DNA of 64,000 nt from Shigella phage SSG23, in the sequence record PQ351811; one strand, 5' to 3'. Position 1 is the stretch's first letter, and each line of letters starts with the position of its first letter. The position numbers were made by a program, and so were the translations under genes. Positions 17,714 through 35,786 of the stretch are shown in pieces. The notes under the pieces were generated by a model, which had not been told where the DNA came from, made no database searches, and worked only from the letters and a program-made list of their open reading frames with translations.

Positions 17714-19822
17714 ATGAAAATGCATATTGATAATGAAGAAGTATTTGGCAGTGACCTGAGCGGTGCGGTTGATTTTTCACTGAAAGCAAGTAGCAAGGCT
17801 TTTATGGTGCTTTCTAAGAACACATATCAATATTGTGAGCGTGCTTGCGTCCGTGAGTATTCGTGCAATGCTACCGACACTCACAAAGAAGCCGGAACCT
17901 TAGATCGTCCGTTTGATATTCATTTGCCGACTGCAATCGAACCGTATTTCTCTGTACGTGATTATGGTACTGGTATTCCATCTAAGAAAGAATTAGAACA
18001 ACTGTTTACGGTTTACTTTGAATCAACCAAAGACCAGACTAATGACTATATCGGATCTTTTGGTTTGGGTGCGAAGTCTGCTTATAGCTACACCGACACC
18101 TTTACAATCGTGAACTATTACAATGGTCGCGCTTATGGCTTTACTGCATTCGTGCAAAACTCTATGCCGAAAATGGTGCAGATTTTCGACGAACCAACCT
18201 ATGAAGACAATGGTCTGAAAATCACTATTCCGGTGAAAGAGAAAGATATTCAGACATGGCATCGAGAAGCACAATTTGTACTGCGTCATTTTGGGGAACA
18301 TAAACCGAATATCAACGCAATCGAAATTAATTATTTCCCTAGCTTTGATAATTATTATGTGTGTAATGGACGTGATAACGATTCCTATGTGGTATATGCA
18401 ATCATGGGTAAGATCCAGTATCCGATCCCGTATGAATATGTTCGCGGAACATGGTTAGAAGCTGTAAACCGCCAGCACCAGACCATTTACATTAATTTTG
18501 AGTTGGGTGATCTGGACCTGATGCCATCGCGTGAAGAAGTTCACTTGTCAATTGAGACTAAAGCGAACATCGAAAAACGTATTGCAGAAATCAATGAAAT
18601 GATGTTGGAAAAGGTTAAAGAGAAGATCGCCAGCATTGAAACGGAGCGTAAACTCGCGCAATTTATGAGCGAGTATTCATCGACTCAACGCAATATTATT
18701 AGCAAGATGGGTAAGATCGGACAATGGGACGATCCGGTAGCAATCTATAACAAGTTTGTAAATGCTGGTAAAGATTCGCCTAATGACGTAGAAGGTCAAG
18801 TGTATACTCTGTATCGTACTCGACACACAATCAGCAAATTGCGCCCTGCTTTCGTTAGCAGTCAATACAACATTACGCACTTTGTATGGATTCATAAAGA
18901 AGATATTCTATGTGTAATTGATGATACGGATAAACCGAAACTGCGTGCACTGACTCTTAACGGCATGGTCCAGGAATACGGCATCAATAAAAAGGTACTG
19001 GTGTTCCGTCAGAGCAACGAAAAACACATGGAGACTTTCGAGTACATCAAACAGTATTATGATGAATCGGAAATGACCGTGATTAAGGTATCCGAGGCCG
19101 ATGATCTGCGTGCTAAAGCAGTTAAGCCGGAGAAGACCGAACGTGCACAGCGTGAAGCTACTCCTAAGCTGCCTAACGTGTATATCATGGAAAAGATTGG
19201 TGACAGTTGGCATAAAACCAGCCATCATATGAAAGCGGCAGAGATTCGCGAGTTATCAGGCTTGCACATGTTCCGCGTGGGTGATGCATTCGAAAGCCGT
19301 AGCCGTCAATCGATCTATAGTGAAGATACCTTACACACGGCGCTTGACTACTTCGGGGTAACAAAGTATATTATTACCAGAAACGAGACACAAAAATATC
19401 TCGTTGACGAACAACTGGAATGCGCGCTAGAATTTGTTCGCGGTAAGCTGGCTGGTCTGGCTAAGAAGGTTAAGACCAATCATCTGGGGTATGGCGAATA
19501 TCTGGGTGTGATCACTATGTTGTTTCATGACGATGAATTAGAACGCTGTATTCCAGAATTTATTGACAGACTCTATGGTCGTCATTATAATAAAGAGGTT
19601 TCCAAGTTGCTCCTTCGTACTCGTTGGATTATGGACGAAGAAACTAAGAAGATCTGCGATGAAAAATTCACGGCAGCAAACGAACGAATTAAAGCAGTTT
19701 GTGCGAAGTTTAAAGAGAATAGCCCGTTACTGTATGATATTGTAGATAACTGGTATCGTATTCTGCATAATGACAAACGCGCACAAGACTTTATGAAACT
19801 GGTTAAGAATGTTAAATTTTAA
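17714..19822 (+). CDS. rIIA: rIIA protein (membrane-associated, GHKL-type ATPase fold)
   Basis: 702 aa; VRDYGTGIP and IGSFGLGAKSAYSYTDTF match T4 rIIA Bergerat-fold motifs; followed by rIIB. Confidence 0.85.
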   Translation: MKMHIDNEEVFGSDLSGAVDFSLKASSKAFMVLSKNTYQYCERACVREYSCNATDTHKEAGTLDRPFDIHLPTAIEPYFSVRDYGTGIPSKKELEQLFTVYFESTKDQTNDYIGSFGLGAKSAYSYTDTFTIVNYYNGRAYGFTAFVQNSMPKMVQIFDEPTYEDNGLKITIPVKEKDIQTWHREAQFVLRHFGEHKPNINAIEINYFPSFDNYYVCNGRDNDSYVVYAIMGKIQYPIPYEYVRGTWLEAVNRQHQTIYINFELGDLDLMPSREEVHLSIETKANIEKRIAEINEMMLEKVKEKIASIETERKLAQFMSEYSSTQRNIISKMGKIGQWDDPVAIYNKFVNAGKDSPNDVEGQVYTLYRTRHTISKLRPAFVSSQYNITHFVWIHKEDILCVIDDTDKPKLRALTLNGMVQEYGINKKVLVFRQSNEKHMETFEYIKQYYDESEMTVIKVSEADDLRAKAVKPEKTERAQREATPKLPNVYIMEKIGDSWHKTSHHMKAAEIRELSGLHMFRVGDAFESRSRQSIYSEDTLHTALDYFGVTKYIITRNETQKYLVDEQLECALEFVRGKLAGLAKKVKTNHLGYGEYLGVITMLFHDDELERCIPEFIDRLYGRHYNKEVSKLLLRTRWIMDEETKKICDEKFTAANERIKAVCAKFKENSPLLYDIVDNWYRILHNDKRAQDFMKLVKNVKF

Positions 19823-22062: not shown

Positions 22063-23427
22063 ATGGATAAAATTAGTCAAATTATAAACACAATTACTTA
22101 CCGTAGCCTTGAAAGCATTGTACACAATGAAGCTAAGGAATATGCGATCTATTCTGCCGAGGAACGCGGGATTCCTCAATTAGTAGATGGGCTTAAACCA
22201 GTGCAACGCTTTGTTATGGAATGTGCTTTGCAAAAGAGTAAAGGCGACCGTAAGAAATTCCGTAAGATGGCAGATATTGGATCTGGTGTTGCTGAGTTGG
22301 GGTATCACCACGGGGAAACTAATGCCGTAGAAGCTGGATCACTCATGGCGAATACATGGAGCAATAATACTCCACTGCTTGACGGTCAAGGTAACTTTGG
22401 ATCGCGTTTAGTCCAGAAAGCGGGGGCAGCACGTTATATCTTTGCTCGTGTGCATGAAAACTTCTTTAAAATCTATAAAGATATGAATTGCGCACCTAAG
22501 CACGAAGATCTGGAACACATCCCGCCAGCATTCTACTTGCCAGTCGTGCCAATGGTATTAGCTAATGGTATTAGTGGTATTGCTACAGGGTACAAAACTG
22601 ACATTTTACCGCATTCACTGGAAAGCCTCATTGAATGCACAGAGCTAGCACTTGCCGGAAAACTGGATAAAGAACCTACTGTTCAATTCCCGAAATTCAC
22701 GGGTAAAGTTATCCCGCGAGATGATCGCGATGGTGTGATTCTTGAGGGTACATATGAACTAAACGGCAAGACTAAGCTGACAATAACGGAAGTTCCTTAT
22801 AAGTTCGACCGTGAAGAATATGTAGCGGTACTGGATGCGCTGGAAGAAAAAGATCTGATTGTATCGTATAATGACCGTTGCTCTAAGGACGGATTCAGAT
22901 TTGAAGTAACCCTGAAACGCGATTATTTCAAAAGTGAAGATGAATCCGCTCGACATGAGCAGATCATGAAGGATTTTAAGTTAACGCAGCTAGTAGCACA
23001 GAATATCGTAGTAGTTAACGAACGTGGTTTAGTTGAAGTATTCGAGAAAGCGAGCGATCTGATCCGTCGATTCGTCGAAATCAGATTAGGCTATGTAGAT
23101 AAACGCATTGAATTGATGCAAGCCGAAACACTGGAAGCATACAATTATGCAATGGCTAAAGCAGAATTTATCGACCGCGTAATTAAGGGCGAAATCGAGC
23201 TACAGGGCAAGAAAAAGGCCGAGGTGATGCAATCCATCAATGGACATGAAAAACTGCGTCCATATGCCGATAAGCTCGTTTCTATGCCATTGTATAGCGT
23301 TACTCAAGAAGAGTATGATCGACTGGTCAAAGATGCCGATAAACATCATAGTGAATATGAGTATTGGACAAAGACGACCGCAATGAAGGAATATAAGAAA
23401 GATCTTAAAGAACTTAAGAAGGGTTGA
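22063..23427 (+). CDS. 52: topoisomerase II medium subunit gp52 (GyrA-like)
   Basis: GLKPVQRFV motif and size match T4 gp52; start chosen at RBS-proximal ATG. Confidence 0.85.
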   Translation: MDKISQIINTITYRSLESIVHNEAKEYAIYSAEERGIPQLVDGLKPVQRFVMECALQKSKGDRKKFRKMADIGSGVAELGYHHGETNAVEAGSLMANTWSNNTPLLDGQGNFGSRLVQKAGAARYIFARVHENFFKIYKDMNCAPKHEDLEHIPPAFYLPVVPMVLANGISGIATGYKTDILPHSLESLIECTELALAGKLDKEPTVQFPKFTGKVIPRDDRDGVILEGTYELNGKTKLTITEVPYKFDREEYVAVLDALEEKDLIVSYNDRCSKDGFRFEVTLKRDYFKSEDESARHEQIMKDFKLTQLVAQNIVVVNERGLVEVFEKASDLIRRFVEIRLGYVDKRIELMQAETLEAYNYAMAKAEFIDRVIKGEIELQGKKKAEVMQSINGHEKLRPYADKLVSMPLYSVTQEEYDRLVKDADKHHSEYEYWTKTTAMKEYKKDLKELKKG

Positions 23428-23633
23428 TTATGAAAGATTATCCCGTAGGTGGTTATGTGGCTTTCGTGTTCAACAATGAAAAGATTGCACCAATGGTCGT
23501 TGAGACTATGGAAGAAGCCAACCGGATCACTATTGAATCTCTGAACAAGTTAGCAGAGATAACAAACACACCAAAACACAGAGCAACGATAGATTATTTG
23601 ATGAAAGAATTTTTGGAGGGAAAGTATGACTGA
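23424..23633 (+). CDS. hypothetical protein
   Basis: 69-aa ORF overlapping gp52 stop. Confidence 0.35.
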   Translation: MIMKDYPVGGYVAFVFNNEKIAPMVVETMEEANRITIESLNKLAEITNTPKHRATIDYLMKEFLEGKYD

Positions 23634-24021
23634 ACGACGCATCACTGCAACTGGTTTGGGTAATCATCATGCATGGATGGTTAATCCAGACAAAAATCCT
23701 TATAAACTGTACGATACAACGATTAAACCGTGGGATAATGGCGTGTGGAAAACATCACCGACAACAGCACCTATTATGACCGATCCGAAACCGATTAGCC
23801 CGATGGCGGAACCAGTACAGATTAAGCCGTTACCATACCAGATAACGACGAATAGCATCGCCAACAAGCAAGAAAATGATATTGATATGATCTACGAGAT
23901 GATTAAACTTTGGCGTGATGTTTATCTGGGTGTTCTTTGCAACACAGATAAAAGTGCACATGCGGCAGCGGTACTTGCATCTCATGCGGTAGACGAAGCC
24001 AAAAAGAAATTTAGCAAGTAA
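23626..24021 (+). CDS. hypothetical protein
   Basis: 131-aa ORF. Confidence 0.4.
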   Translation: MTERRITATGLGNHHAWMVNPDKNPYKLYDTTIKPWDNGVWKTSPTTAPIMTDPKPISPMAEPVQIKPLPYQITTNSIANKQENDIDMIYEMIKLWRDVYLGVLCNTDKSAHAAAVLASHAVDEAKKKFSK

Positions 24022-24030
24022 CTGATTATT

Positions 24031-24059
24031 AAGCCGATCCTTGTGGTCGGCTTTTTTTT
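24031..24059 (+). terminator. rho-independent terminator (AAGCCGATCC-ttgtg-GTCGGCTT + T8)
   Basis: Strong hairpin and T-run; same element in inverted orientation at 34614-34636. Confidence 0.7.
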
Positions 24060-24072
24060 ATTTTAAAAGTTG

Positions 24073-24101
24073 TTGACTTCCATAATCCAACATTGCATAA
24101 T
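24073..24101 (+). promoter_or_regulatory. sigma70-like early promoter TTGACT-17-CATAAT
   Basis: Conserved leader cataccaaacaaaaggagattcaaaa then ATG 24133. Confidence 0.55.
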
Positions 24102-24132
24102 ACACCCATACCAAACAAAAGGAGATTCAAAA

Positions 24133-24339
24133 ATGAAAGTACGTTGCATTGAAACCGATCACATCAATTATAGCTTTAGTGTCGGGTGTGATTATGATGT
24201 TGATATATTCACGGACAATAGCGGAAACACATTTGATGTAGTTCACGGTGACTATATTTGGTTTTACTTTGACAAACAACAACTTACTGCAACCAAACGA
24301 AATGGTGATCCGGTAGCAAAATTTGAAATAATCGAATAA
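24133..24339 (+). CDS. hypothetical protein
   Basis: 68-aa ORF from RBS-proximal ATG. Confidence 0.4.
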   Translation: MKVRCIETDHINYSFSVGCDYDVDIFTDNSGNTFDVVHGDYIWFYFDKQQLTATKRNGDPVAKFEIIE

Positions 24340-24345
24340 AGTCTA

Positions 24346-24374
24346 TTGACACCAGAACAAGGGAGTAGTAACAT
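24346..24374 (+). promoter_or_regulatory. PeSL-type promoter TTGACA-17-TAACAT within palindrome GGGAGTA...TACTCCC
   Basis: Palindrome 24361-24380; conserved leader and RBS before ATG 24406. Confidence 0.55.
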
Positions 24375-24405
24375 ACTCCCATACCAAACAAAAGGAGAAT
24401 CAAAG

Positions 24406-29940: not shown

Positions 29941-32883
29941 TTAATTCTTTTTAAGTTCCGCTAGTTCAGCTTTAACGGCTTTCAATTCTTCGCTCATTTC
30001 CTGAAACGCCTTAATTAAAAGAGCGTTGACAGCAGAGTTAGAAATTGTTAATATCTCTTCTGGTTTATCTGGATCGCCGACCTTAGAAGTTGTTACGGCT
30101 TCCGGCAATTCTTTTTCAAGATCCTGTGCAATAATACCAACTTCATGAGCAATGACAGTACGGTCAGTTAAAGATTTAACCTTATCGTAGGTGTATACAG
30201 TCAAGCGATTAACTTTATCGGTGGCATTCTCTTTATACTCTTCCTTGTTGATTTTAAGGCGAGCATCAGAACGAATATACACATCGTTAAACGAACCGTT
30301 ACGACCTACCGACATATCACCGGAGGCGTTAAAGTCAAAGTTGGCGTCATGAACGTTTAGGCGAGCTAAAGCATTGGTAATAGTACCACTAGGAACATGT
30401 ACACCCATTGCTGCGATATGATATTTACCCCAATGCGTCGCTTTCCATACGTTATGTGCCGAGTCAACGGATTGAGGACACCCAACCATAAGGCCAGCAG
30501 CACGGTCACGCCAGCTAGCCCAACTACCGCCAGCAACTTCACCACGAATCAGGCCATTACCGCCACCAGTTACAGTACCAGCTTCCAATTGGATCATTTT
30601 ATCTGCAAATTTCCACGTCTGGGCTTGTTTCTGACCACGGAAGCGAATAACACCAGCATCATCGGAATACATCAAACCTAGTTCTAAACCGTCTGGATCT
30701 CTAAACCAGATATGCTTATTACCAGTGCGACGAAATTCAATATCAGCACCGTTCAAAAGAATATTGCCGCCAGTGTGAATTGCTTGAGGCTTAACAGTAC
30801 CGTTGATGGCAAACTCAATTGCAGAAGTACCCGGACCGCCAGGCCGTTGAGTATACCAATGCCAACCACTTTCATCTACACACTCGAAAACCTGTTTACG
30901 GGAACCACTATTACCCCATGCACGAATGTTAAAGCCAGATGTGGCTGTACCCTTGCCCCACGTTAATTTCCCTTCTGTGGTTAAATCCCCTCGGAAGTGA
31001 GCAAGCAATCCACCATCAGCATTACGTTCGGTTGTAAAATGTGTTCCTTTCGTGTCTTCAAATTGTAAAACATTATATCGTCCAGCGTTACTATTCCCCC
31101 AATGGTTAATAGTGAAAGAATCCATCGACTGATTCCCACCCGCAGAGAAAGTAAGCAATCCTTTTTCTAAGAATACATTGTTGCTAAAACGAGCAGCACG
31201 GCTATCTCTTTCGAGAACTAATGCGCCTTCGTTACCATCACCACCTAAAGTAACTTTACCATTTGTCAAATCGTAGATGAATGGTCGGTTGCCGTTCCAT
31301 CCACCAAAACGGTCATTTTCTTCTGTGGAAAGAAGATAAATTTTCGTACCGTCATTACGCCAGAATGCACCGTAATTACCAAAGATCATGCGATATGCAT
31401 CTGAGTTAGCGGAATAGTATTGTCCGTTGGTATATACAATTTTTGTTTTTCCTGTAGTCAAATTTACTTGTCCACTACCTTCCAAATCAAATGAGTTAGC
31501 ACCAACATCATTACGCCACACAAAACCATCACTAGTACCATCCGCATGACCGATATAACCACTACGTTGGTTTTTACCATCACGACGATCCCACCACGCC
31601 ATATAGGCAGCTTGATCAGTCTGGCGATGTAAAGTCATCGCATTACCACTACCGTGCAATTCCATTTTACCAGTAATTACATATCCTTTATAGCTACCAG
31701 GTATAGCACTATTAGAATCAACTCTAAGAACTTCCGTAGAATCTGTAACACCAGTAGCAAGACGATATACAGCACCCTGAACGGTTTCATGCCAAACCAT
31801 TTCATTATAGTTACTACGGAATTTACGAATATATTTCCTACCAGTACCTCTATCATTACTCAAGTGAACAATATCATAGCTATTTTGTGTGTTGTCGTCA
31901 AAACTCAACACACCTCGTTTGTTTTCGGTGTTGAAAAGAGTTACAGCGCGACCGCCAATAACATTATCGCCAGCAGGACGTTCAGCAACAAAATCTGGAA
32001 CGTCATGCACTGTTAAATTAACATCAACACTTTTACCAAATTCAACAATAACGTTATCAGTATAACGCTGATATTTCACATAGATATCATAGTTATCGCC
32101 AGAAGTGTTAACAGCCAAAACATCAAATGATTTGTTTGTATTTCGGCGATATGCAATAACGTTAACACCTTTAGGGCGATTATTTCCACTACGAATAACA
32201 ATTTCTACAATATCAACTTGATCGTATGCAGTAACGTTATATCCGTTGCCGCCATGAATACGGAAAAATACGCTACGCCCATTTTGTGGAATCATTGCAG
32301 TTGCTAATTTAAAATAGCCTTCAACGGTATCAACAGGAACTGTAGCAAGTTTAACGTTCTTAACAAACATTCTATCTACTTCTTGTTTGCTATAAACGTT
32401 CAATTCTCCTGGAGTTGGCTTATCACCTTCGTGATACATGCGGTAACTGAATCTCTTGTTGCCATCCTTATCAAAACCATAGGTTTTAACCTGAGAGGAA
32501 CTAGAACCATATTGAAATTCAAACCCGCGACCGTGTGCTTTACCGTTAGAATGAGGAATGTTCAGAATCAAGTTAGACCAACCATCAGCATTATTCGTTC
32601 GAAACGCACCAAATTTGTCAAGGTCGCGAGCGGTTGAATCGTCCATATAGTTAGCGGTTTTACCTAAAATATAGTTGTCGCCGTCAACCTTACCAGCGAA
32701 TCTAACTTGTCGGTCATAAACCGGAGGACAACTTAAATTGATAATAGCACCGGAATCATTTTTAGTAAGAAGATATTGATCCGCAAGGTTGATTGCCAAT
32801 TCCCCCGGATTCATCGTACCAGCATCAGGTCGACGACCTTTAGTGCTAGTGCGTTTAAATTGGATTCTGCTTAAATCTGCCAT
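29941..32883 (-). CDS. 37: long tail fibre distal subunit gp37 with C-terminal intramolecular chaperone (peptidase S74-like) domain
   Basis: 980 aa; N-terminus MADLSRIQFKR...GELAINL matches T4 gp37; C-terminal about 110 aa has SDARLKIN and GIIAQDLEKELPEAV. Confidence 0.8.
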   Translation of the reverse strand: MADLSRIQFKRTSTKGRRPDAGTMNPGELAINLADQYLLTKNDSGAIINLSCPPVYDRQVRFAGKVDGDNYILGKTANYMDDSTARDLDKFGAFRTNNADGWSNLILNIPHSNGKAHGRGFEFQYGSSSSQVKTYGFDKDGNKRFSYRMYHEGDKPTPGELNVYSKQEVDRMFVKNVKLATVPVDTVEGYFKLATAMIPQNGRSVFFRIHGGNGYNVTAYDQVDIVEIVIRSGNNRPKGVNVIAYRRNTNKSFDVLAVNTSGDNYDIYVKYQRYTDNVIVEFGKSVDVNLTVHDVPDFVAERPAGDNVIGGRAVTLFNTENKRGVLSFDDNTQNSYDIVHLSNDRGTGRKYIRKFRSNYNEMVWHETVQGAVYRLATGVTDSTEVLRVDSNSAIPGSYKGYVITGKMELHGSGNAMTLHRQTDQAAYMAWWDRRDGKNQRSGYIGHADGTSDGFVWRNDVGANSFDLEGSGQVNLTTGKTKIVYTNGQYYSANSDAYRMIFGNYGAFWRNDGTKIYLLSTEENDRFGGWNGNRPFIYDLTNGKVTLGGDGNEGALVLERDSRAARFSNNVFLEKGLLTFSAGGNQSMDSFTINHWGNSNAGRYNVLQFEDTKGTHFTTERNADGGLLAHFRGDLTTEGKLTWGKGTATSGFNIRAWGNSGSRKQVFECVDESGWHWYTQRPGGPGTSAIEFAINGTVKPQAIHTGGNILLNGADIEFRRTGNKHIWFRDPDGLELGLMYSDDAGVIRFRGQKQAQTWKFADKMIQLEAGTVTGGGNGLIRGEVAGGSWASWRDRAAGLMVGCPQSVDSAHNVWKATHWGKYHIAAMGVHVPSGTITNALARLNVHDANFDFNASGDMSVGRNGSFNDVYIRSDARLKINKEEYKENATDKVNRLTVYTYDKVKSLTDRTVIAHEVGIIAQDLEKELPEAVTTSKVGDPDKPEEILTISNSAVNALLIKAFQEMSEELKAVKAELAELKKN

Positions 32884-32920
32884 TTGATAAAATCCTTAAA
32901 CGGTTATTAGAATAATATTA

Positions 32921-32948
32921 TTTAGAAAAGCGGGGAGATAATCCCCGC
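32921..32948 (-). terminator. terminator-like hairpin between genes 36 and 37
   Basis: GCGGGGA-gataa-TCCCCGC; U-run on minus strand. Confidence 0.45.
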
Positions 32949-32953
32949 TAAAA

Positions 32954-34444
32954 TTAGAAAGTACCAAAATCAATCACCGCATTAAGTGGAACCGCGCCAA
33001 CCTCTGCGGGTGTCGGTTTATGGCCTTCGTGGTAAAGTTCATAGCGATCTGTGTCTTGAGTATTTCCACGCGCTTTAATGAAAACAGCTTTAGAATCGTG
33101 TGTAATACCCAATTTTTCGGTGGCTTTGATATCGCTGATACGGTGAATCATAGCCGTGCCATCGGCACTATTTAACCCAGCATAGTAGTTATCACCGTTA
33201 TATGCACCTCTAGCCGTTTTAACGCCATTTGCAGCCGGAACAGTTAACGGTCCTGTCATGGTGTCGCCAGTTACGTTAACATAGCGAATATCGGCTAATT
33301 TACGGTGATCTACATAGTTCCATGCAGTCCACGATTCATTAGAACAGGAACGCCAGCACATCGGATGGTCAATAGATTCAGGATAATACACCTGAACAAT
33401 TCGACGAGTACCGACCGCATCTTCTGGGCGGTATACCATCAAAACGCCGTTATAATAGCTATCAGACGGTTTATTAGTACCTGATCCAGCATTTTCCACA
33501 CGATAGATACCGCGATTAATAAGAGTGTTCCAATCAACGTTTCCAATGATGGTTGGATTTGCTACCATTGATTTTTTCTCAAAGTAGCTCAAACGAACCA
33601 ATTCATTAGGACCAGCAGGATCGTTTGTCGCCAACATTCTAGGCGCTTGCAAGTTACCTTCCATAATATCACCAGCACGTTTAACCTGTGCATCATTGGT
33701 GACATTACCTAGACCAACATCGGCTTTAGTTGGTTTATTGTTGGTGTGATAAAAACGACCTTCTTTGCCATTAACAAAAATGGTAGGCTCATCTTTACTT
33801 CGGAATACCAACGTATCAAGAACGTTACCATAATAGATTTTAGTGGCATCAAAATTAATTAAATCACGTCCCCTTGCAATTAATTTCGAATCAACCGATA
33901 ATTTAACTGTGACAGTGTTTAAATTATATGTTCCTGAGAGAGTATCACCGCGACGGGAGACTAAATCCAAATCATTATTCGTCGGTTTATTGACAGGGCT
34001 ATAGACGCGCTGACCTGTGTCTTTAATGGTTGTCCCTTCGATAGTCCCTTTAGACTTAAATTCGCCCGTTGTGGTGTCAATATAAGCCATGATAACACCA
34101 TCACGGGCATTAACAAAGCCGATTGACTTCCATGAATGCAAACCCCAGCTTACACCGTCAAAATTAGCGGCATCGCTCTGTCCTTTAAAAATACCGTTCT
34201 TTTTGGTTTCCCCAGCCGATGCACTACCTACGCTTAAACCTTCCTCAAAATGAACTTGCTTTTGAAATGTACCACCCTCGGATGCACTAACAGCATCAAA
34301 ATCGGTAGCCGAAGGTCTATCAAAAGCGGTATAGATTTTATGACCTTTGTAGAAAAGCTGATCTCCCGCTGGCTGGATCGTCAAGTTTCCTTGCGTCCAA
34401 ATGGGAGATCCGCCTACAGTAGATCCATGTTTCAAATCTGCCAT
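32954..34444 (-). CDS. 36: long tail fibre hinge subunit gp36 (enlarged, 496 aa)
   Basis: N-terminus MADLKHGSTVGGSPIWTQGNLTIQPAGD matches T4 gp36 (MADLKVGSTTGGSVIWHQGNF...); much longer than T4 gp36. Confidence 0.7.
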   Translation of the reverse strand: MADLKHGSTVGGSPIWTQGNLTIQPAGDQLFYKGHKIYTAFDRPSATDFDAVSASEGGTFQKQVHFEEGLSVGSASAGETKKNGIFKGQSDAANFDGVSWGLHSWKSIGFVNARDGVIMAYIDTTTGEFKSKGTIEGTTIKDTGQRVYSPVNKPTNNDLDLVSRRGDTLSGTYNLNTVTVKLSVDSKLIARGRDLINFDATKIYYGNVLDTLVFRSKDEPTIFVNGKEGRFYHTNNKPTKADVGLGNVTNDAQVKRAGDIMEGNLQAPRMLATNDPAGPNELVRLSYFEKKSMVANPTIIGNVDWNTLINRGIYRVENAGSGTNKPSDSYYNGVLMVYRPEDAVGTRRIVQVYYPESIDHPMCWRSCSNESWTAWNYVDHRKLADIRYVNVTGDTMTGPLTVPAANGVKTARGAYNGDNYYAGLNSADGTAMIHRISDIKATEKLGITHDSKAVFIKARGNTQDTDRYELYHEGHKPTPAEVGAVPLNAVIDFGTF

Positions 34445-34477: not shown

Positions 34478-34485
34478 TATTTATA
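34478..34485 (-). promoter_or_regulatory. T4-type late promoter TATAAATA upstream of gene 36
   Basis: Plus-strand TATTTATA 34478-34485, about 34 nt upstream of start codon at 34444. Confidence 0.6.
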
Positions 34486-34603
34486 GAATGTTAACAAAAT
34501 ATCGCTTCGCGACGTGCCGTAGGCACTGACTATTTTTTAACCGAAACAAACTTTTCTATATTCTAAAGATCTTTCTTCGTTTTGGCTACGTTTTAACCAA
34601 CTG

Positions 34604-34636
34604 TATAAAAATAAAGCCGACCACATGGATCGGCTT
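34604..34636 (-). terminator. rho-independent terminator after gene 35 (minus strand)
   Basis: Hairpin 34614-34636 nearly identical (1 mismatch in 23) to reverse complement of terminator at 24031-24053; U-run on minus strand. Confidence 0.6.
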
Positions 34637-34646
34637 GTTAAAAATG

Positions 34647-35786
34647 TTAATCAACATCGAACTCTTTAAAGTTGTTGGATGTGATATGTTTATTATCTCT
34701 AGGCAGCTTAAGAAGACTCATTACAGGGTTAGTAAAATCACCGTTATCCTGAATATGAGTTGTTCTAACACCATTAACACCAAAGGAAGTAGGACCAGTC
34801 GTTTTGACAACCCCACTGATCGGCGTTATTAGTATGTTTCTAACTTTAACAATACCTTCATTGGAGTTGGTTGGATATCTAACGCAACCAGTTACTACAC
34901 TATCAACTCCTTCCGGTACAGTATAAACAGCTTCAAACTTTTCCCATTGATCTTTTTTGCTGGCATTGTATCGAACACCAGTTTTGTATTGTCCATCAGT
35001 AAAATAGTTGTGATAGAAACGCGCTGTTACGTTAGCTGCGGCTGCGGCACTATCACGGAACAATTCAAAAGATATTGATAGTTTGTCACCCGCCTTTATG
35101 TTAAAATCTTCAAGTGGTGCGCTGATCTCATCATGAGGCCATTGTATTAGCTCGAAATGTTCGGCATCTTCGCTAACATACTCAACCGGATAATCTAAAA
35201 ATCTCTGTGGTGTTCCTGTGATCGCAAGATCATCTATAGTATCATAAACCTTCTCAATTTGTATAGACGAATCTTGTCCTTCCCCGTGGGTCGCTTGCAT
35301 ACCCTCACAAACAATTTTACCCATTTTCGTAGAATAAATTGCTGCATATGATACACGAGGCATTTGCTGTAACAAAATATGGTTAGGGAATGATACAGCC
35401 CCCAGCTTAGAGAATACATCATCGCTTACCGGGTCTGCAAACAATTCTCCATGCGTTGCCATCGCAATGATATAGTCACCTTTCAGCAAAGAAAGATAAT
35501 CACGCATTGCCAAAACAGCACCCCGACCATAGAATACCTTTTCTTCGTGTAGTTGTCCAGTTTGGGTAAGAACTTTAAAATTTAGGCCAGTTTCATAGCC
35601 AGTCCCGACGATCTCCACTCCATTAAATCTAATCCTTGCTGGTTTGGTAGAATCCGCATTAGATCCGCGTACTTCCAGCTTATACATCACAGAGTTGTTT
35701 TCTGAAATGCTTGTAAATGTCGCGGAGTCCTCATCGAAATGCGCAAATTTAATTCCAGTGTTGCGTAATTCTATCTCTTGTGTCAT
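34647..35786 (-). CDS. 35: tail fibre protein in the gp35 (hinge connector) position
   Basis: 379 aa between gp34 and gp36 homologs, same size class as T4 gp35; not sequence-confirmed. Confidence 0.5.
   Translation of the reverse strand: MTQEIELRNTGIKFAHFDEDSATFTSISENNSVMYKLEVRGSNADSTKPARIRFNGVEIVGTGYETGLNFKVLTQTGQLHEEKVFYGRGAVLAMRDYLSLLKGDYIIAMATHGELFADPVSDDVFSKLGAVSFPNHILLQQMPRVSYAAIYSTKMGKIVCEGMQATHGEGQDSSIQIEKVYDTIDDLAITGTPQRFLDYPVEYVSEDAEHFELIQWPHDEISAPLEDFNIKAGDKLSISFELFRDSAAAAANVTARFYHNYFTDGQYKTGVRYNASKKDQWEKFEAVYTVPEGVDSVVTGCVRYPTNSNEGIVKVRNILITPISGVVKTTGPTSFGVNGVRTTHIQDNGDFTNPVMSLLKLPRDNKHITSNNFKEFDVD

Follow-up and report, generated by a model that had tools for sequence, protein, structure and literature searches.

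Two near-identical predicted terminator hairpins on opposite strands of a Krischvirus genome and the likely history of their resemblance

Why should a T4-type phage genome carry nearly the same 23-bp hairpin twice, on opposite strands and 10.6 kb apart, and does such a pair point to a mobile module, to an old copying event or to a shared terminator design? The question arises in a window of 64,000 nt (the whole stretch of DNA that was analysed), for which an earlier note had described one hairpin present on both strands with a single loop mismatch; direct sequence matching bears this description out. Site 1 (hairpin 1), AAGCCGATCCTTGTGGTCGGCTT, lies at window positions 24031-24053 on the plus strand, and site 2 (hairpin 2), AAGCCGATCCATGTGGTCGGCTT, at 34614-34636 on the minus strand, where it agrees with site 1 at 22 of 23 positions and differs by a T-to-A change in the loop. 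When the window was subjected to dinucleotide-preserving shuffling, none of 100 shuffled sequences contained two matches at three or fewer mismatches. The window is 100% identical to positions 76162-140161 of the record of Shigella phage SFHK24 (PQ351812.1; complete genome 168,820 bp), to which all record coordinates given below refer. This phage belongs to the genus Krischvirus, a group of RB49-like T4-type phages, and 58 related records were found. In the complete genome, for which the earlier note had proposed a search with the 23-mer, sites 1 and 2 are the only copies at up to five substitutions, that is, two in 168.8 kb. A third, looser relative, AAGCCGTCCTTGTGGGCGGCTT, which matches in the loop and outer stem, follows a DNA methyltransferase gene (record 19619-19640, minus strand).

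The likeness of the two sites is narrowly bounded. It comprises the hairpin and the T-rich tail, with 30 of 32 nt identical and one gap; beyond these, no homology was detected by alignment or by self-BLAST of the genome, and the flanks of the two sites are unrelated. Because the stem is palindromic, the sites are identical at 16 of 23 positions even when read on the same strand, and the inverted orientation of the pair is set by the loop, by a U.G wobble (position 8/16) and by the T-tail.

Both hairpins have the features expected of Rho-independent terminators. Each has a 9-bp stem with five G-C pairs and a 5-nt loop (AAGCCGAUC-CUUGU-GGUCGGCUU in hairpin 1 and AAGCCGAUC-CAUGU-GGUCGGCUU in hairpin 2), and the folding energies of -12.7 kcal/mol (z -3.76) and -12.6 kcal/mol (z -3.72), respectively, are well below those of shuffled sequence. 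The stem runs directly into a U-rich tract, formed at site 1 by TT within the stem and TTTTTTATTTT (24054-24064, plus strand) and at site 2 by TT within the stem and TATTTTTATA, the T-rich tail UAUUUUUAUA following ...GGCUU at 34604-34613 on the minus strand. At both sites the T-run occurs on the transcribed strand only, and since the opposite strands lack it, both predicted terminators would be one-directional. The preceding stop codon lies 9 nt before hairpin 1 (ORF 23626-24021, plus strand) and 10 nt before hairpin 2 (gene 35, minus strand). Furthermore, the orthologues of both sites are already annotated as terminators in the phages GEC-3S, G2248 and Makalu_003, and a promoter is annotated after the site-1 orthologue in GEC-3S. 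Compared with canonical Rho-independent terminators of E. coli and phages, the two sites are alike in the G+C-rich 9-bp stem, the short loop, the immediate U-run and the location after a stop codon; no essential difference was found, and the pair is unusual only in that one genome holds two terminators identical at 22 of 23 positions. Stem, energy, T-run, stop-codon position and annotation in relatives thus all agree with the earlier designation of both hairpins as terminators, and both copies are very probably Rho-independent terminators, each facing the way in which its own transcription unit is read. From what is known of intrinsic termination, the 9-bp G+C-rich hairpin would form in the nascent RNA, and the following U-run would leave a weak RNA:DNA hybrid from which the polymerase is released.

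Searches of RNA families and host genomes gave no other identity for the hairpins. At gathering thresholds, no Rfam family was found anywhere in the window, and permissive scans of both sites returned only sub-threshold matches, in which unrelated sRNA models aligned through their terminator ends. An origin of the hairpin from the host was rejected, as no counterpart occurs in 5,426 complete E. coli genomes. A separate observation concerns the annotation of SFHK24, in which CDS0191, a 29-aa 'hypothetical protein' at window 34537-34626 (minus strand), begins with the ATG of the hairpin 2 loop and spans the T-tail and the 110-nt element described below. This call is almost certainly spurious, because its ATG is missing in relatives with a TCGT loop.

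The two predicted terminators stand in very different surroundings, and the gene context given in the earlier note was correct for both, site 1 following gp52 and two small ORFs and site 2 following the stop codon of gene 35. On the plus strand, gene 52 (22063-23427; DNA topoisomerase II medium subunit; CDS0169 in PQ351812.1 and gene 52 in RB49 and Phi1) opens the early/middle '52 block', which runs into hairpin 1. The last ORF of this block (23626-24021) encodes 131 aa and is a homologue of RB49 ORF265c. The T-tract after hairpin 1 doubles as the AT-rich upstream region of a predicted early promoter of sigma-70 type, AAAGTTGTTGACT-N17-CATAAT, at 24066-24101 on the plus strand (TTGACT-17-CATAAT at 24073-24101), which is followed by a conserved ACACCCATACC...AGGAGA leader and by the ATG, at 24134, of an ORFan of 68 aa (24134-24340, plus strand).

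This arrangement corresponds to the promoter-early stem-loop (PeSL) cassettes, which were defined in RB49 and phi1 (Arbiol et al., 2010; PMC2839356) and were also described for T4-like phages in a later study (Comeau et al., 2014; PMC4122927). The published cassettes include a subclass with the stem-loop upstream of the -35 element, and they mediate the shuffling of ORFans; strong terminator activity was demonstrated only for a different stem-loop, that of PeSL211/210 (Arbiol et al., 2010; PMC2839356). PeSL stem-loops are furthermore documented as crossover points, including crossovers inside the loop. In the genome studied here, 16 cassettes of the pattern AAAGTTGTTGAC-N17-YATAAT were found, all on the plus strand, nearly all intergenic and mostly ahead of hypothetical ORFs. 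Site 1 fits this pattern, and a terminator hairpin lies upstream, in the AT-rich region, in 4 of the 16. By self-BLAST, the promoter and leader of site 1 match more than 10 other intergenic cassettes. A consensus promoter, an AT-rich region and a stem-loop are therefore combined at site 1 within a dispersed family, with an ORFan indel whose breakpoints lie in the cassettes; every feature of the published PeSLs is shared, in a phage of the same genus in which they were defined. Judged by its sequence, site 1 supplies the stem-loop to a PeSL cassette of the published type, which joins a predicted terminator to an early promoter. Hairpin 1 would accordingly stop transcription of the rIIA-rIIB-52 early/middle block by the host RNA polymerase on the plus strand, and the strong sigma-70 early promoter of the cassette would restart transcription into the ORFan-rich hyperplastic region.

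The segment next to site 1 offers a clean example of PeSL-mediated shuffling in its own right. An ORFan cassette at window 24112-24380 (plus strand) consists of the 68-aa ORF and its own PeSL, whose stem-loop, GGGAGTAGTAACATACTCCC (24361-24380, plus strand), overlaps the -10 element of that PeSL and forms the right-hand boundary of the cassette. By alignment, and in agreement with gaps in coverage, the ORFan occurs in SFHK24 and Makalu_003 but not in RB49, GEC-3S, Phi1 or kaaroe. The junction of the indel falls between CATAATACA and CCCATACC, in the -10 region common to the two flanking PeSLs.

Site 2, in contrast, has only the stem-loop in common with a PeSL. Its neighbours are core late genes, and a late promoter comes after it. 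It is placed on the late-gene strand, after gene 35 (34647-35786, minus strand; long tail fibre proximal connector), and is predicted to terminate the late transcript of genes 34-35. Beyond its T-rich tail come a dispersed repeat element of about 110 nt (34491-34600, minus strand), the late promoter TATAAATA for gene 36, read directly at 34478-34485 on the minus strand, and gene 36 itself (32954-34444, minus strand; long tail fibre distal connector), the first gene past the terminator; genes 36 and 37 and the holin gene lie downstream of site 2. No PeSL-type promoter adjoins the site, which lies between core tail-fibre genes 35 and 36 and not in a hyperplastic region ahead of an ORFan; nearby there is only a weak TAGCCA-17-TAGAAT, within the unrelated 110-nt repeat, and then the late promoter. 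Nowhere in the genome does the minus strand show the PeSL promoter pattern, and site 2 is therefore not a PeSL.

The nature of site 2 becomes clear from comparison with the same junction in other T4-like phages. In T4, the stop codon of gene 35 is followed by GGGACCCTTCGGGTTCCC, a T5 run, TATAAATA and gene 36, and site 2 matches this junction in both position and order (stop, hairpin, T-run, TATAAATA, gene 36). The order of stop, hairpin, T-run and late promoter also recurs, with different hairpins, in Mineola (Jiaodavirus), Konradin (Lazarusvirus) and Pantoea phage Phynn, the late promoter past the T-run being TATAAATA in T4, Mineola and Konradin and CATAAATA in Phynn. The hairpin sequence is thus genus-specific: it is GGGACCC-UUCG-GGUUCCC in T4, AAGGAAGCC-UUCG-GGCUUCCUU in Mineola and AAGGACC-GCAA-GGUCCUU in Konradin. 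In addition, a terminator between genes 35 and 36 was predicted in all six genomes of an earlier study, RB49 included (Nolan et al., 2006; PMC1524935). The spacer between the two genes measures about 200 nt in Krischvirus, compared with 43-62 nt in T4 and the other genera, because the 110-nt repeat element lies between the terminator and the late promoter. On this comparison, site 2 is the Krischvirus form of the conserved T4-type junction of predicted terminator and late promoter, and the presence of a 35/36 terminator across genera means that it is ancestral and not an inserted module. The comparative genomics of the 35/36 junction that the earlier note had suggested consequently speaks against its claim that a mobile module separates a tail-fibre gene from its neighbour here: a terminator and a late promoter occupy this junction in T4, Mineola, Konradin and Phynn, and the terminator is reported as conserved in six T4-like genomes (PMC1524935). 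The late transcript of tail-fibre genes 34-35, made from the minus strand, would end at hairpin 2, just ahead of the late promoter of gene 36.

Within the genus, both hairpins are fixtures. They occur at fixed positions in 58 of 58 Krischvirus records and in relatives from IMG/VR, and in the 57 records other than SFHK24 both sites keep their strand and lie about 9-11 kb apart. These comparisons rest on GenBank records, the IMG/VR locus searches having returned three and two loci only. Across 10-12 genomes the stems are invariant, with the sole exception of kaaroe, in which the U.G pair is changed to C-G, a strengthening substitution; all other substitutions fall in the loop. At site 1 the loop is TTGT in SFHK24, RB49, GEC-3S, Makalu_003, Skers, kaaroe, Phi1, ECD7, LF73P4 and one IMG/VR contig, and GTGT in G2248; at site 2 it is either ATGT or TCGT. 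The combinations observed for site 1 and site 2 are TTGT/ATGT, TTGT/TCGT and GTGT/TCGT. Concerted evolution of the two sites was rejected, as the loop variants do not co-vary. The strength of conservation is illustrated by a deeper relative, the contig IMGVR_UViG_3300005711_000027, whose gp35 is 87% identical and in which hairpin 2 is identical at 23 of 23 positions and the surrounding spacer has diverged.

Two further observations were made during these comparisons. A scan of IMG/VR for AAGCCGATCCNTGTGGTCGGCTT returned seven stretches, three of them Krischvirus-like and four inovirus-like (L006, L007, L009 and L010). The latter are human-associated contigs of one lineage and contain the exact 23-mer with loop G, as in the site-1 variant of G2248; their hairpin has a 158-aa ORF on one side and a coat-like ORF of 74 aa on the other, without a T-run, and the four contigs show no similarity to any phage record. 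They probably represent a chance occurrence of a palindromic 23-mer. The second observation concerns window 30000-33250, which covers the distal tail fibre gene 37 together with the beginning of gene 36 and is the most divergent stretch among relatives, with 60-85% identity or no possible alignment; the gene complement there differs in G2248 and Skers, with extra small ORFs and a gp38-like adhesin. The mosaicism of this stretch concerns host range and has no relation to the hairpins.

The 110-nt element at 34491-34600 is an extra, repeated component of the 35/36 spacer, separate from the hairpin repeat and lacking in the corresponding spacers of T4 and the other genera. It contains an inverted repeat, TTGGTTA-N5-TAGCCAA / TAACCAA, whose arms are conserved and whose spacer varies in relatives, the palindrome AAAGATCTTT, the sigma-70-like TAGCCA-17-TAGAAT, and the hairpins GTGCC-TAC-GGCAC and GCGAAGC followed by a T-run. 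A second copy, 90% identical, lies upstream of gene 3 (record 32076-32183, plus strand) in the same orientation, and partial copies precede CDS0276 (record 163224-163256 and 163373-163415, plus strand). No Rfam match was obtained for the element; it may be a site of protein binding, a unit that yields a small RNA, or an early promoter under regulation. In the 35/36 spacer of Makalu_003 (L021), one of its hairpins reads GTGCC-GTA-GGCAC as against GTGCC-TAC-GGCAC at window ~34514-34526, and this exact inversion of the loop is the signature of a template-switch (hairpin flip) mutation.

The element also marks the breakpoints of one unusual genome. Compared with SFHK24, LF73P4 (OZ035795.1; loci L019 and L025-L027) shows two large rearrangements, with junctions at ~37.3-37.6, 56.8, 82.9-83.2 and 141.4 kb; collinearity holds among the other 57. 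The four junctions fall exactly in repeats: two are the reciprocal junctions expected of an exchange between inverted 110-nt copies (SFHK24 32.1 and 110.7 kb), and two are those of an exchange between near-identical PeSLs (53.46 and 136.73 kb). Throughout the rearrangements every gene keeps its own promoter. LF73P4 could represent either a real double inversion or rearrangement, or a mis-assembly induced by the repeats.

How, then, did two terminators in such different settings come to be nearly identical? Among 942 terminator pairs of the genome, sites 1 and 2 score highest (0.96, compared with a median of 0.26 and a 99th percentile of 0.72). In a simple model, in which sets of 40 hairpins were drawn from the genome's own position-specific base-pair frequencies, a pair with at most one mismatch arose in 22 of 20,000 sets, or about 0.1% by chance. 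The rarity of such pairs in the simulation, together with the top score, makes old copying or conversion more likely than convergence, and we hold with moderate confidence, from these sequence comparisons, that the two sites share a common origin. A single event in the genus ancestor, by which a short patch passed from one terminator to another through copying or gene conversion, would account for the pair, and purifying selection may then have kept the hairpin at both sites. Since the site-2 loops ATGT and TCGT are each one step from TTGT, ancestral site 2 may have equalled site 1 and could have matched it at 23 of 23 positions. No footprint of the event survives in the form of flanking homology, and the direction of copying is not readable from the pair.

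The proposal in the earlier note that the module was 'recombinationally copied' is thus sustained as history, by the rank of the pair among the 942, by the simulation and by the location of site 1 in a PeSL, a published recombination substrate; as a description of the present it finds no sign. The term 'mobile' finds no support, given the fixed positions in 58 of 58 records, the lack of flanking homology, the absence of a mosaic breakpoint at site 2 and the independent drift of the loops. The lack of co-variation between loops, combined with fixation in 58 genomes, leaves no sign of present-day mobility or conversion. Likewise, neither the presence/absence polymorphism nor the position polymorphism of a MITE- or REP-like element was seen, and the genome of 168.8 kb holds two copies and one looser relative. 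Taken as a whole, the explanation that we consider likely is that of two ordinary terminators whose near-identity stems from old copying and which are not currently mobile.

Against copying stands the possibility that the hairpins arose separately and became alike through one narrow Krischvirus terminator design. Such a design exists: terminators of this genome follow the order A-run, AGCC, 2-4 pairs, CC-tetraloop-GG, GGCT and T-run, and about 15 loci share the AGCC...GGCT frame. Other near-twin pairs score 0.90 (161982/163131), 0.88 and 0.87, and the stem AGCCGTCC/GGGCGGCT is identical at record 19619-19640 (minus strand) and 163131-163150 (plus strand); further positions of twin terminators are record 161982-162001 (plus strand) and, in LF73P4, 153935 and 13265. 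Between SFHK24 and LF73P4, the loops on these stems interchange TTGT, TTCG and TCCT, and repeated terminator stems with drifting loops are a general feature of the genome. The stereotyped design and the other near-twins indicate that constraint plus convergence explains part of the similarity. As the whole explanation, however, independent convergence appears rather unlikely, for the simulation that yielded so few pairs with at most one mismatch already incorporated the genome's own design, and the two sites have in common a U.G wobble, unusual in itself and identically placed, as well as a loop outside the UUCG and GNRA types. A more dynamic view would treat the short dispersed regulatory repeats of Krischvirus, from terminator hairpins and PeSLs to the 110-nt element, as live recombination substrates that occasionally rearrange the whole genome, with the twin hairpins produced by gene conversion and the LF73P4 rearrangement real; this we regard as doubtful.

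Two other roles for the pair were weighed and judged very improbable. The inverted 23-bp repeats might act at the DNA level, as recombination sites bounding a 10.6-kb variable segment that includes ORFans, the holin gene and genes 37 and 36. It is equally improbable that they permit inversion or cassette exchange of host-range genes, as such sites would. The segment between the hairpins is indeed the most variable part of the region, PeSL stem-loops are known crossover points, even within the loop, and in the LF73P4 assembly a rearrangement has its breakpoint in the adjacent 110-nt inverted repeat. No inversion between the hairpins was found in any of the 58 records, however, the LF73P4 crossover falls in the 110-nt element and not in the hairpin, and 23 bp without flanking homology constitutes a very short substrate. 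The 250-bp identity profiles against eight relatives also led to rejection of the related idea of a cassette boundary, as they show no breakpoint at hairpin 2 and, at site 1, only the PeSL indel. There is similarly little likelihood that the stem with its U.G wobble and the CC-UUGU-GG apex are recognised by some factor of the phage or the host that binds RNA or DNA, or that such recognition, for example in protection or processing of mRNA 3' ends, keeps the sites identical. The strict conservation of the stems at both sites, even where gp35 is 87% identical, and the same apex and outer stem in the third terminator would fit a recognition element, but about 37 other terminator-like hairpins of the genome do without the sequence. 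The loop, which is the usual recognition surface, is moreover the variable part (TTGT, GTGT, ATGT, TCGT), and the hairpin has neither an Rfam family nor a host counterpart. Old copying between two ordinary terminators therefore remains the preferred reading of the pair.

Much of what is described here has precedents, as both hairpins are already annotated as predicted terminators in relatives, and earlier publications describe the PeSL cassettes as well as the terminator at the 35/36 junction. One detail is new, namely that the gene 35 terminator of Krischvirus has nearly the same sequence as a PeSL stem-loop situated 10.6 kb off on the other strand. The pair matters little alone, and the 110-nt repeat and the LF73P4 rearrangement are the more intriguing leads; repeats beside terminators can confuse assemblies, or truly rearrange genomes. 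In a small way, the twin hairpins are evidence for copying or homogenisation of terminator sequences inside a T4-like genome.
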